A stretch of 64,000 nucleotides of DNA from a virus (taxonomy: Duplodnaviria > Caudoviricetes), in the IMG/VR virus record IMGVR_UViG_3300020434_000055. The stretch is one strand, 5' to 3'. The notes under the pieces were generated by a model, which ran no database searches, had not been told where the DNA came from, and saw only the letters and a program-made list of their open reading frames with translations. The position numbers and the translations under genes are program-made. Of this stretch, positions 38,412 through 48,712 are shown piece by piece (positions within the stretch are counted from its first letter, which is position 1; each line of letters starts with the position of its first letter).

Positions 38412-39419
38412 ATGCAAAAAACTAAACTAGAATACGTATGGCTAGACGGTTATAAGCCTGAACCTACATTACGATCTAAAATAAAAATAGTAGACAGATA
38501 TTGTAGTCACGTTGAAGAAGTTCCATTATGGGGCTTCGATGGTTCTAGTACACAACAAGCAAAAGGTTCAAGTTCAGATTGTATATTAAAACCTATACGA
38601 TTATACAATAGTCCTTTTGCATCTGATCAATTAGTATTATGTGAAGTTTTCAATGCAGACGGAACACCACACGAAACAAACTCAAGAAATAAAATTGAAA
38701 GTTTAAATCAAAAAGAATATTGGTTTGGCTTTGAACAAGAATATACATTAATGTTGTCCGGACGTCCATTAGGTTGGAATCCGGACCCATTAATTTTTCC
38801 AAAGGAACAAGGAGATTATTATTGTGGAGTAGGAGGAACTAATATAGGTTCCTTAGGAAGAAAAATAATGCACGAGCATATTAAAAAATGTTTAGTTGCA
38901 GGAGTTTCAATACACGGAACTAACGCAGAAGTTATGTTAGGACAATGGGAATATCAAGTGTTTGGTCGAGGTGCTAAAAAATCGGCGGACAATGCTTGGA
39001 TGGCACGTTATATACTTTACAGAATAGCAGAAAAATATGAGGTTGATGTTAATATAGATCCCAAACCAATCAAAGGAGATTGGAACGGAAACGGTATGCA
39101 TACTAACTTTTCAAATAATAAAATGCGAGACGAAGGTGGAGAAGATTACATTAAAAGTATTTGTGAGAAATTTAAACCTGCACACAAAGAACATATTATA
39201 GAGTATGGTAGCAAAAACGAAGAACGTTTAACAGGACTACACGAAACACAACACATTGATACATTTAGTTACGGTGTTAGTGATAGAGGGGCAAGTATTA
39301 GAATTCCTTTAGCACTTACACAAAAAAATTGGAAAGGTTATTTAGAAGACAGACGTCCTTCCGGAAATGCTGATCCTTATAGAGTTACTAATCGTATATT
39401 AACAACAATGGAACAATAA
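38412..39419 (+). CDS. glnII: Glutamine synthetase type II
   Basis: WGFDGSST, FGFEQEY, NAEVMLGQWEYQ, DWNGNGMH, RLTGLHET, RGASIRIP, LEDRRP. Confidence 0.96.
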   Translation: MQKTKLEYVWLDGYKPEPTLRSKIKIVDRYCSHVEEVPLWGFDGSSTQQAKGSSSDCILKPIRLYNSPFASDQLVLCEVFNADGTPHETNSRNKIESLNQKEYWFGFEQEYTLMLSGRPLGWNPDPLIFPKEQGDYYCGVGGTNIGSLGRKIMHEHIKKCLVAGVSIHGTNAEVMLGQWEYQVFGRGAKKSADNAWMARYILYRIAEKYEVDVNIDPKPIKGDWNGNGMHTNFSNNKMRDEGGEDYIKSICEKFKPAHKEHIIEYGSKNEERLTGLHETQHIDTFSYGVSDRGASIRIPLALTQKNWKGYLEDRRPSGNADPYRVTNRILTTMEQ

Positions 39420-40687
39420 TGGATTCGATAATGAGAAATGTTCTCCCTTTAATGGATTGGAATTCTAATAGATGGGATGGCATCATCAGACCTTACTCTC
39501 AGAAAAGCGTAGAAAAATTACGTGGTACTGCTGACATTCAATATACTCTTGCTGAAAGAGGATCAAGAAAACTTTGGTACAAGTTAAAAGAATTACCTTA
39601 CGTAAGTTCCTTAGGTGCTCTTACAGGTAACCAAGCACTACAACAAGCCAAAGCAGGATTAGATGCTGTATACTTGTCAGGGTGGCAAGTGGCGGCAGAT
39701 GCAAATACAACAGACGAAATGTATCCAGACCAGTCATTATATAATACTGAAAGTGTTCCTCGCATACTTAAAAAAATTAATAATACATTTATTCGTGCAG
39801 ATCAAATTCAACATATGGAAGGTAAAGAGAACATAGATTATTTTTTACCTATTGTTGCAGATGCTGAATCAGGATTTGGTGGTGTATTGAATACGCACGA
39901 AGTATTCAAACATATGATTAGAGAAGGTGCATCAGGAGTACACTTAGAAGATCAATTGTCTTCAGCAAAAAAATGTGGACACATGGGTGGAAAAGTTTTA
40001 GTACCTACTAGCGAAATGATTGAAAAACTTGTAGCGGCTAGACTTGCCGCGGACATTATGAAAGTTCCATTAATAATAATTGCAAGAACAGATTCACTTG
40101 CTGGTGCTTTAATTAGAAGTGATCACGACGAAGTAGACCAAAAATTTATAACAGGTGAACGAACTGCTGAAGGATTCTTTAGAACAAAAGCAGGAATGGA
40201 TCAAGCAGTTGCTCGTGGACTTGCATATGCTCCATATAGTGATTTAGTATGGATGGAAACTAGTAACCCAGACATCGGAGAAGCTAAAGAATTTTGTATA
40301 GAAGTACGTAAAAAATTTCCAAATAAGATGTTTGCATACAATTGTTCTCCGTCATTTAATTGGAAAGCTAAACTAAATGACAAACAAATAAGAAACTTTA
40401 AAGACGAATTAGGAGAGATTGGTTGTAAATTTCAATTTATTACACTTGCAGGATTTCACGCATTGAATCATAGTATGTTTGATTTAGCTAGTAAATATAA
40501 AGAAACAGGCATGACTGCTTTCGTTGAACTGCAACAAAAAGAGTTTGCGGCACAGGCCCAAGGATTTACAGCAGTTAAACATCAAAGAGAAGTAGGTGCA
40601 GGATATTTTGATGAAGTATCAAAACTAGTTACAGGCAGTAGTACGTTAAGTGCTTTACAAGGATCAACAGAAGAGGAACAATTTTAA
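39419..40687 (+). CDS. aceA: Isocitrate lyase
   Basis: YLSGWQVA, YPDQSLY, ADAESGFGG, HLEDQ...KKCGHM, AYNCSPSFNW, HQREVG.GY. Confidence 0.97.
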   Translation: MDSIMRNVLPLMDWNSNRWDGIIRPYSQKSVEKLRGTADIQYTLAERGSRKLWYKLKELPYVSSLGALTGNQALQQAKAGLDAVYLSGWQVAADANTTDEMYPDQSLYNTESVPRILKKINNTFIRADQIQHMEGKENIDYFLPIVADAESGFGGVLNTHEVFKHMIREGASGVHLEDQLSSAKKCGHMGGKVLVPTSEMIEKLVAARLAADIMKVPLIIIARTDSLAGALIRSDHDEVDQKFITGERTAEGFFRTKAGMDQAVARGLAYAPYSDLVWMETSNPDIGEAKEFCIEVRKKFPNKMFAYNCSPSFNWKAKLNDKQIRNFKDELGEIGCKFQFITLAGFHALNHSMFDLASKYKETGMTAFVELQQKEFAAQAQGFTAVKHQREVGAGYFDEVSKLVTGSSTLSALQGSTEEEQF

Positions 40688-44604: not shown

Positions 44605-44633
44605 TTGACATAACTACCCAAATATGTTATAGT
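44605..44633 (+). promoter_or_regulatory. sigma70-type promoter
   Basis: TTGACA-17-TATAGT. Confidence 0.75.
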
Positions 44634-44651
44634 AGTATAAATATAGAAAAG

Positions 44652-44679
44652 AATTTTGCCGTCATGGCAAAATTTTTTT
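44652..44679 (+). terminator. Rho-independent terminator-like hairpin
   Basis: AATTTTGCC-GTCAT-GGCAAAATT followed by a T-run. Confidence 0.65.
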
Positions 44680-44721
44680 GAGTAAAATTTTTTTTTGAAT
44701 GATTGAAAAGGGAAAAAGAAA

Positions 44722-45531
44722 ATGACACAACTAATAAATCCTACAAAATATACTGATATAAATGGCCGTTTACGGTCATTTTTTTTGAATAAAGGATTCC
44801 TAGAAGTTCATACGCAAAATAGATTAAGCATATTAGCGGCGTGTGAAGATCCTACTACAATATCAACATACAATTATGCCGGGAAAGTTTGGCCCTTACC
44901 CCAAACCGGGCAGATGTGGCTCGAATATGAATTACTTAATGACCCAGCTGTGCCTGGGTTTTTTTGTATTAGCACGTCCTATCGACAAGAACCGAATCCT
45001 GTAAAAGGGAGGCATGACTTAATATTTCCAATGTTTGAATTTGAATTTCCAGGAACATTTGAAGATTTAAGAAGTATGGAAATAGAACTATGTGAACACT
45101 TAGGCTTTGGTCCTGTAATGGAAAAAAGTTATAAAGAATGGTCTAACATATACAACGTAAAAGAACTAGAAGCAATACATGAAGATCAAATGTGTAAAAC
45201 ACATGGTACTTGTATGATACAGAACTTTCCTAATACTACTTCTCCTTTTTGGAATATGAAACAAAATGGGGATGGTACTGCATCAAAAATAGATGTTATT
45301 ATAAAAGGAATAGAAACAATTGGTTCTGCAGAAAGATCAAGTGATCCGGATGAAATGCGAAAACAATTTCATACAATTTCAGAAGGTATGTATGCTGAAT
45401 TATTATACGGACGATTTGGAAAAGAACGAGTAGAAGAAGAACTTGAAGAATTTCTAGCACACGACTTTATTCCACGAGTAGGTGGTGGAATAGGTTTAAC
45501 TAGAATGATTAGAGCAATTGATCTAATATAA
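44722..45531 (+). CDS. Class IIb aaRS-like catalytic domain (AsnRS-related/asparagine synthetase-like) lacking an anticodon-binding domain
   Basis: Motif 1 R.FF...GFLEV, LPQTGQ, motif 2 SYRQE...RH...F.M.EFE, ETIGSAER, motif 3 GGGIGLTR. Confidence 0.85.
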   Translation: MTQLINPTKYTDINGRLRSFFLNKGFLEVHTQNRLSILAACEDPTTISTYNYAGKVWPLPQTGQMWLEYELLNDPAVPGFFCISTSYRQEPNPVKGRHDLIFPMFEFEFPGTFEDLRSMEIELCEHLGFGPVMEKSYKEWSNIYNVKELEAIHEDQMCKTHGTCMIQNFPNTTSPFWNMKQNGDGTASKIDVIIKGIETIGSAERSSDPDEMRKQFHTISEGMYAELLYGRFGKERVEEELEEFLAHDFIPRVGGGIGLTRMIRAIDLI

Positions 45532-45536
45532 TTTAC

Positions 45537-45627
45537 TCTGCGGTGGCGGAATTGGTAGACGCAATTAACTGTTCATTAATGGAGTAATTATTTACTCGTG
45601 TAGGTTCGAATCCTACCCGCAGAGCCA
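45537..45627 (+). tRNA. tRNA with GTT (Asn) anticodon and a long variable arm
   Basis: Acceptor TCTGCGG/CCGCAGA, G73, encoded CCA; T-arm GTAGG-TTCGAAT-CCTAC; anticodon arm ATTAA-CTGTTCA-TTAAT; variable stem GAGTAA/TTACTC. Confidence 0.88.
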
Positions 45628-47809: not shown

Positions 47810-48712
47810 ATGAGATTCGCTGGTGCACAGATACCTGTAACTCGTGACCTTGACCAAAATGTCGAAACAATTAAAACTAGCATTGATTGGGCCACAAAAA
47901 ATAAATGTGACTATCTAATAACTCCTGAAGGATCATTAAGCGGGTATATGCCTGACTTTGATACCTATAGTGGAGCCTCTTATTATCTAGAAGACGATAT
48001 TCGTAATCCTGACTTTAATCCTAAAAAAGTAGAACCCAAAGAAAAAAGAAAATTTGATGACGTTGAAAATGCATTAATGACTATAGAAAATTATGCAGGC
48101 AAAAATGGTGTAGGTCTTGTTCTTGGAACATTGTATATAGAAAATGAAAGTCAAGGTAAAATTAAAAGAAATCAACAACGTTACTACAGTCCAGATGGAA
48201 TGTTATTAGGTACAGTTAATAAACGATTCCTTATTAGATGGGACAATGTAATTGCTGGACACTATTCACCTTTAATTAGTATGCCTAATCGTAAAAAAAC
48301 AGAAGTTGTTAAAGCTGTAGGTATGTTATGTAATGACCTTTGGGGAGGTTGGTGGACAGGAGAAGAAAACATTGGACGTGAAGCTAAACGATTAGGAGCA
48401 GATATATTAATACACTCATCAAATGGTGCAAGAGGATTAGATCCAATAGAAGATAAAATTCATGATGACTTTCATACAGGTTGTTTAGCAATGATAACTT
48501 ATTCTGCAGATATGCCAATTATAAGTGTAGACAATAGTATTCATATGGATGGAAATGAATATCATGGAGAAACATCAAGTCCTTCTGGTGCATGGTATAA
48601 AGAAAAATTAATAGACGTTCCTAGAACTGGTACACAACATTTTCACTTTGACTTTACTCCAAAACCACAACAAACACAATTTATAGATCCTGCTATTTCT
48701 TTTGGATCCTAA
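47810..48712 (+). CDS. Carbon-nitrogen hydrolase (nitrilase superfamily)
   Basis: AGAQI, TPEGSLSGY, NK, LCNDLW (E-K-C triad). Confidence 0.88.
   Translation: MRFAGAQIPVTRDLDQNVETIKTSIDWATKNKCDYLITPEGSLSGYMPDFDTYSGASYYLEDDIRNPDFNPKKVEPKEKRKFDDVENALMTIENYAGKNGVGLVLGTLYIENESQGKIKRNQQRYYSPDGMLLGTVNKRFLIRWDNVIAGHYSPLISMPNRKKTEVVKAVGMLCNDLWGGWWTGEENIGREAKRLGADILIHSSNGARGLDPIEDKIHDDFHTGCLAMITYSADMPIISVDNSIHMDGNEYHGETSSPSGAWYKEKLIDVPRTGTQHFHFDFTPKPQQTQFIDPAISFGS

Follow-up and report, generated by a model that had tools for sequence, protein, structure and literature searches.

A stand-alone asparaginyl-tRNA synthetase-like enzyme of marine phages, its partner tRNA, and a possible role in dihydroorotate supply

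Marine phages carry a conserved two-gene unit that consists of a stand-alone catalytic core resembling asparaginyl-tRNA synthetase (AsnRS) and an atypical tRNA, and the enzyme of this unit is probably a new metabolic enzyme rather than a tRNA charger. Our best explanation, to which we give about an even chance, is that it is an AsnRS-derived ligase that would make dihydroorotate without aspartate carbamoyltransferase (PyrB) and dihydroorotase (PyrC) and would serve phages as a nucleotide-supply gene. We infer this chemistry from the observed fold, ATP-binding motifs, Asn-type pocket, association with pyr genes, gene fusions, and absence of PyrB and PyrC. The unit described here lies in a 64,000-nucleotide stretch of viral DNA (the window; IMG/VR record IMGVR_UViG_3300020434_000055), which is phage DNA with 32.7% G+C that encodes a terminase, helicases, and a DnaB-like helicase (Table 1). 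Near-identical DNA is contained in marine metagenomes from at least 11 studies.

Table 1. Elements of the enzyme-tRNA unit, with positions counted from the first nucleotide of the window
Feature	Position	Strand	Description
Sigma-70-type promoter-like site	44605..44633	+	TTGACA-17-TATAGT with TG extension; consensus match only
Leader hairpin and T run, terminator-like or attenuator-like	44652..44681	+	Hairpin at 44652-44674, between promoter and start codon
AsnRS-like ORF	44722..45531	+	269 aa; stand-alone class IIb core; PHROG 29758; T4-GC 194 "tRNA ligase" in cyanophages
tRNA, 91 nt, GUU anticodon	45537..45627	+	ARAGORN; Rfam, 50.5 bits; covariance model, 92.8 bits

The sole Pfam domain of the enzyme is tRNA-synt_2 (class II D/K/N), which spans residues 13 to 264 (E value, 7e-14) and leaves no space for an N-terminal OB fold, and the AlphaFold model (mean pLDDT, 95.3) is a complete class IIb catalytic domain. 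Both agree with the first-pass annotation of this DNA, which had described a class IIb core without the OB anticodon domain. The best PDB matches of the model are AsnRS catalytic domains (Thermus thermophilus 9SH8, Pyrococcus horikoshii 1X54, and human 8H53), with Z scores of 27.0 to 27.6 and rmsd values of 2.1 to 2.5 over ~245 residues, and further matches are archaeal AspRS (Z, 26.5), archaeal asparagine synthetase A (24.3 to 24.8), and EpmA (24.2). The enzyme shares with AsnRS the motif 2 and motif 3 arginines (R88 and R261) and the Leu/Glu/Arg set at the sites separating AsnRS from AspRS, whereas it lacks the OB-fold anticodon domain and the hinge, is 21 to 23% identical, and has a conserved AACED loop of its own. 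Motif 1, reported together with motifs 2 and 3 in the earlier annotation, is present but altered, since Gln32 replaces a Pro that is invariant in all known relatives, and Gln is the residue of the enzyme family at this site. In an NCBIfam search, all models of AsnRS, nondiscriminating AspRS, LysRS, and EpmA scored below 30 bits against cutoffs of 264 to 468; the AsnRS family models TIGR00457 and PRK03932 reached 26 to 27 bits (cutoffs, 342.6 and 414) and the EpmA model 28 bits (cutoff, 264), and the AsnA model gave no match. PHROG 29758, a family with no assigned function, matches the enzyme from end to end (E value, 3e-121).

Alignment to the Escherichia coli enzymes places L67, E106, and R205 at the sites of AspRS K198, D233, and R489, respectively, whose roles are taken from the structural literature. 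At the first two sites the enzyme follows E. coli AsnRS, which has Glu at the E106 site, and not AspRS, and Arg stands where LysRS and EpmA carry Glu. Judged by this alignment, the side-chain pocket is of the AsnRS type rather than the Asp or Lys type. An Asp-charging enzyme that feeds GatCAB is unlikely, given that there is no Lys at the K198 site and Glu occupies the D233 site. We also rejected a split AsnRS with its OB fold encoded by a separate gene: the small open reading frames upstream are not the same from phage to phage and match no Pfam family.

In species genomes we found 256 relatives of the phage protein. Many of these are 58 to 65% identical to it, with their genes on large chromosomal contigs from Patescibacteria, Bacteroidota (Aureispira, Chitinophagales, and Weeksellaceae), and Rickettsiales. 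The gene is sporadic, being present in 2 of 201 sampled Patescibacteria and 3 of 121 sampled Chitinophagales, and the NCBI names of its products are "amino acid--tRNA ligase-related protein" or, by misannotation, "transposase" (P0024 and P0276). Conservation across phage and cellular enzymes reaches at least 95% at about 100 of the 269 positions, including R88, E90, E106, E198, R205, and R261, and the two groups differ in their conserved residue at only three core positions. The same catalysis is therefore to be expected in phages, and by this sequence comparison the phage enzyme very probably does what the cellular enzymes do. In some Patescibacteria the gene clusters with argH (called at equivalog score) and a cytosine-deaminase-related amidohydrolase gene (PRK06886), as at L114:634-3837, L128, and L177, and this cluster may point to another use of the enzyme. 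At nine other Patescibacteria loci a tRNA-Gln gene lies 0.1 to 3 kb away (L105, L107, L108, L115, L119, L123, L134, L145, and L154); bacterial tRNA-Gln has U1-A72, like tRNA-Asn.

The genomic context of the cellular genes points to pyrimidine synthesis. Two metagenomic proteins are predicted fusions, one with an N-terminal DHO_dh domain followed by the core (P0123) and the other with the core followed by a C-terminal OMP decarboxylase domain (P0155). At six Bacteroidota loci the gene order is pyrE/F, pyrD, and the core gene, with a pyrD that encodes a class 1A dihydroorotate oxidase equivalog. None of 13 Bacteroidota carriers yielded PyrB, which was found in 36 of 38 sampled Chitinophagales without the core gene (Fisher P = 2e-10); PyrC above the cutoff was found in 0/6 carriers versus 34/38 noncarriers (P = 3e-5). 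These P values overstate independence because the 13 carriers fall into few clades; many carrier genomes are metagenome-assembled genomes. PyrD and PyrE are retained in all seven carriers tested. Thus, among the cellular homologs, as distinct from the phage genes, the core and PyrB/PyrC exclude each other while PyrD, PyrE, and PyrF are kept. Carriers that possess the late pathway without the steps that make dihydroorotate, and that hold the core gene beside pyrD, argue for a pyrimidine role of the cellular enzymes. The association has its bounds: no pyr genes were found near the core gene in the window, at the viral loci, or in most Patescibacteria. PyrD is missing in three Patescibacteria carriers and one Rickettsiales carrier (G004, G006, G007, and G008), where dihydroorotate would be a dead end. 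In one 6-Mb Chitinophagales genome (G223), searches for PyrB, PyrC, and the core all came back empty; this bacterium may be an auxotroph, its genome may be incomplete, or it may use another route.

In cellular members the enzyme would most likely bypass PyrB and PyrC and supply PyrD with its substrate, dihydroorotate. It would bind an Asn-shaped substrate and ATP, form an adenylate, and close the dihydroorotate ring. The simplest scheme for an Asn-shaped pocket would be L-asparagine + bicarbonate + ATP -> dihydroorotate + AMP + PPi, because dihydroorotate equals asparagine plus one carbonyl that bridges its two nitrogens; the reaction might pass through an activated N-carboxy intermediate, with the side-chain amide closing the ring. 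Aspartate together with a carbamoyl or urea donor would be alternative substrates. The phage copy would act as a nucleotide-supply gene that feeds the late pyrimidine pathway of the host, carrying pyrimidine supply beyond the reversible step of dihydroorotase. The likeness to PyrB plus PyrC is one of function only, in that the enzyme is predicted to provide the PyrD substrate as they do; the proteins are not homologous, and the phage family has a class II aminoacyl-tRNA synthetase (aaRS) fold instead of an amidohydrolase or transcarbamoylase fold, would depend on ATP, and would take two steps with one protein. The archaeal asparagine synthetase AS-AR (3P8T/3REU) and bacterial AsnA are likewise truncated aaRS-type cores of similar size (~290 aa), which form an adenylate of an aspartate-family substrate and need no tRNA to do so.

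In marine phages the core gene is tied to a tRNA gene. Among 80 IMG/VR loci, the tRNA lies directly downstream of the enzyme gene in 66 of the 79 that could be assessed, with a median gap of 7 nt and with 50 of 56 gaps between -5 and +11. The reverse search, in which the viral collection was scanned with a pattern for the tRNA only, found the enzyme gene just upstream in 69 of 72 assessable loci; two of the three exceptions are tRNAs outside the family, so that 69 of 70 family tRNAs accompany the enzyme and one stands without it. The Prochlorococcus phages P-SSM2, P-SSM5, and P-SSM7 each encode a "tRNA ligase" homolog with the tRNA within ~10 nt. The enzyme also occurs alone: 77 of 80 cellular loci, 13 viral loci, and two huge phages lack the tRNA. 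The protein tree gathers the marine-phage proteins into a single derived group, within which phage copies lacking the tRNA occur at dispersed positions and represent losses. The first-pass annotation had proposed that enzyme and tRNA form a self-contained module, to be checked by their co-occurrence across phage genomes, and had named homologs mostly without the tRNA as part of what would speak against it; that pattern is what we see in cellular genomes and not in marine phages, where the conserved unit bears out the pairing from both the enzyme side and the tRNA side. Near the enzyme gene of some marine phage contigs, ARAGORN also calls tmRNAs (L040:993-1375, L064:2583-2917, L065, and L067).

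The window tRNA combines the GUU anticodon, U1-A72, G73, and an encoded CCA with a tRNA-Leu-like body, a long variable arm, and C37, as the earlier description of an atypical tRNA with an Asn anticodon had it. We collected 56 distinct partner sequences with a covariance model, and their cloverleaf shows compensatory changes at 21 of 23 pairs. U1, G73, and the G34-U35 dinucleotide are invariant in all 56, A72 is present in 55, and U36, and with it the GUU anticodon, in 54; CCA is encoded in 51. The family thus has the anticodon, G73, and U1-A72 of bacterial tRNA-Asn and lacks its short variable loop, consistent U33, and purine 37, and its D arm is Leu-like: position 33 is U in just 35/56 (replaced in 37%), and position 37 is U in 52/56 (93%). 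Pair 2-71 alternates between C-G and G-C. We know of no precedent for an Asn-identity tRNA on a long-arm body. In huge phages and cellular carriers no long-arm tRNA-Asn was found, the top matches of the covariance model there being tRNA-Leu.

Two lines of evidence bear on what the enzyme could read in this tRNA. At two loci that are not mutual closest relatives (L033:3859-3958 and L035:3868-3966) the anticodon is GUC (Asp) in place of GUU, accompanied by U33 and G37, and the conserved residues of the neighboring enzymes are unaltered. Since the enzyme has no anticodon domain, and since its pockets do not change where the tRNA has turned to GUC, it cannot read the anticodon, and the earlier label of an anticodon-blind enzyme is upheld. 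The further idea that the variable arm provides the recognition surface, as it does for SerRS, is not supported. The arm varies from 6 to 38 nt across the family, and a family tRNA of 78 nt with a variable region of 6 nt (L059:3800-3877) implies that at least one phage can do without the long arm. Moreover, with only three core positions that differ from the cellular enzymes, the phage enzyme shows no new surface for a long-arm tRNA.

The tightness of this pairing counts against dihydroorotate supply as the function and is explained by it loosely. The tRNA is a real evolutionary partner of the gene, and if the enzyme makes dihydroorotate, the tRNA is probably not its substrate. One coupling might be an "asparagine economy," in which an extra tRNA-Asn sustains decoding of AAY codons while asparagine is diverted, and this is the weakest step of the proposal; alternatively, the tRNA may simply depend on the promoter of the gene, or it may have a direct role of the kinds considered next.

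Enzyme and tRNA might instead be a private charging pair, the main idea of the first-pass annotation, in which a minimal AsnRS reads just the acceptor end (U1-A72, G73, and CCA) and charges its partner for AAU and AAC codons, while the Leu-like body repels host enzymes or anticodon nucleases. The link is asymmetric as such a pair would have it, with the tRNA almost never found without the enzyme and the enzyme found without the tRNA, and the invariant U1, G73, and G34-U35, the encoded CCA, the AsnRS-like pocket, the rank of AsnRS among the structural matches, and an enzyme left unaltered where the anticodon became GUC all fit. Canonical AsnRS is also missing in four of six small-genome carriers. 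However, full-length AsnRS is present in all five Bacteroidota carriers tested, where a second one would be redundant, and charging leaves the pyrD/pyrE/pyrF synteny, the fusions, and the loss of PyrB and PyrC in carriers unexplained. The phage proteins are strongly acidic (median net charge, -19; median pI, 4.7) and show no phage-specific surface change, the swaps at pair 2-71 leave little for recognition by the acceptor end, and the replacements of U33 and the prevalence of U37 make the tRNA poor for decoding. To our knowledge, none of the truncated class IIb paralogs (AsnA, archaeal AS-AR, and EpmA) charges tRNA. We therefore consider charging rather unlikely. The related idea that the enzyme replaces an essential AsnRS in Patescibacteria is unsupported: with 2 carriers among 201 genomes, most of which have no AsnRS anyway, no contrast can be drawn in this group.

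In two other readings the host charges or loads the tRNA. In one, which the earlier annotation had called the simpler, the enzyme is a tRNA-independent asparagine synthetase like AS-AR or AsnA that converts aspartate, ammonia, and ATP to asparagine beside the phage glutamine synthetase, and the host charges the tRNA. The two truncated AsnRS-type paralogs known so far are both asparagine synthetases, AS-AR has the same architecture, glutamine synthetase-like and isocitrate lyase genes lie in tandem 4 to 6 kb upstream of the enzyme gene (38412-40687), and the conserved GUU and G73 form the identity set read by host AsnRS. Yet the family profile is closer to AsnRS (E value, 1e-13) than to AS-AR 3P8T (8e-5), in line with the Z scores, and the genome pattern is unlike that of asparagine synthesis. 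AsnB is already present in five of seven Bacteroidota carriers, against a background of 109/121 (P = 0.16), so that no complementarity with AsnA or AsnB emerges; in several carriers free asparagine would find no AsnRS to use it, and the pyrimidine context again goes unexplained. This reading is quite unlikely. In the other, the tRNA is a nontranslational scaffold or substrate: host enzymes load it, with nondiscriminating AspRS reading G73 and GUU and GatCAB reading U1-A72, and the phage enzyme works on the residue they have attached or, like GluQRS with tRNA-Asp, modifies the tRNA itself. The positions conserved in the family are exactly those that AspRS/AsnRS and GatCAB read, those that serve ribosomal decoding (U33 and purine 37) are not kept, and in gene order the tRNA depends on the enzyme; but the cellular homologs function without any such tRNA, and the ATP-binding motifs point to ordinary adenylate chemistry, which makes this reading, too, quite improbable. 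A combination, in which the enzyme is a new entry to pyrimidines and draws on asparagine that host nondiscriminating AspRS and GatCAB build on the phage tRNA as a nondecoding scaffold, is very unlikely; if true, it would tie tRNA-dependent amino acid synthesis to nucleotide supply.

If dihydroorotate supply is the correct reading, some bacteria have exchanged two textbook steps of de novo pyrimidine synthesis for a ligase derived from an aaRS. Metabolic models, which would now call the carrier Bacteroidota pyrimidine auxotrophs, would gain a route, and the labels "tRNA ligase" and "aspartyl/asparaginyl-tRNA synthetase" would need correcting in many records. Of the unexplained genes in marine T4-like phages, this is one of the commonest, with thousands of sequence clusters and cultured examples in P-SSM2, P-SSM5, and P-SSM7. 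Our literature search found no publication on the function of the enzyme family, and the sole mention was a table entry, "tRNA ligase" (T4-GC 194; PMC3037559).

Under any explanation, the near-obligate attachment of an Asn-identity long-arm tRNA to an enzyme gene is a tractable puzzle of tRNA biology. Known tRNAs in nature that combine the body of one identity class with the anticodon of another include allo-tRNAs (PMC5389517), and Streptomyces ProRSx is reported to be paired with tRNA-Pro variants bearing Ala or Asn anticodons. The phage tRNAs resemble these in mixing identity classes, and the Streptomyces case also has a dedicated synthetase isoform. In the phages, in contrast, acceptor end and anticodon agree on Asn and only the Leu-like body is foreign, and the neighboring enzyme lacks an anticodon domain and is possibly no synthetase.

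At the locus itself, the stop codon of the enzyme gene (45529-45531) is followed by 5 nt before the tRNA starts, as had been noted, and the tRNA is the last element of the unit, since the next downstream gene is on the opposite strand. If the two are cotranscribed, 5' cleavage by RNase P would cut the mRNA a few bases past the stop codon. The first-pass annotation had given them a shared sigma-70 promoter. A near-consensus site does lie upstream, matching 11 of 12 positions and scoring best between 44200 and 46000 in a consensus scan. Matches from scans of this kind are not functional evidence, and the total number of sites equals that in shuffled sequence. Between this site and the start codon stands a hairpin with a 9-bp stem, called on the minus strand, with the same palindrome followed by TTTTTTT on the plus strand; it may end the upstream gene or attenuate the enzyme-tRNA unit. 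Cotranscription from the promoter-like site is thus plausible but may be attenuated, because the hairpin and T run precede the start codon. In RNA libraries the region is represented by few short, low-depth contigs in which transcript ends are not visible and DNA carryover is possible. Farther downstream in the window, a carbon-nitrogen hydrolase gene occupies 47810-48712.
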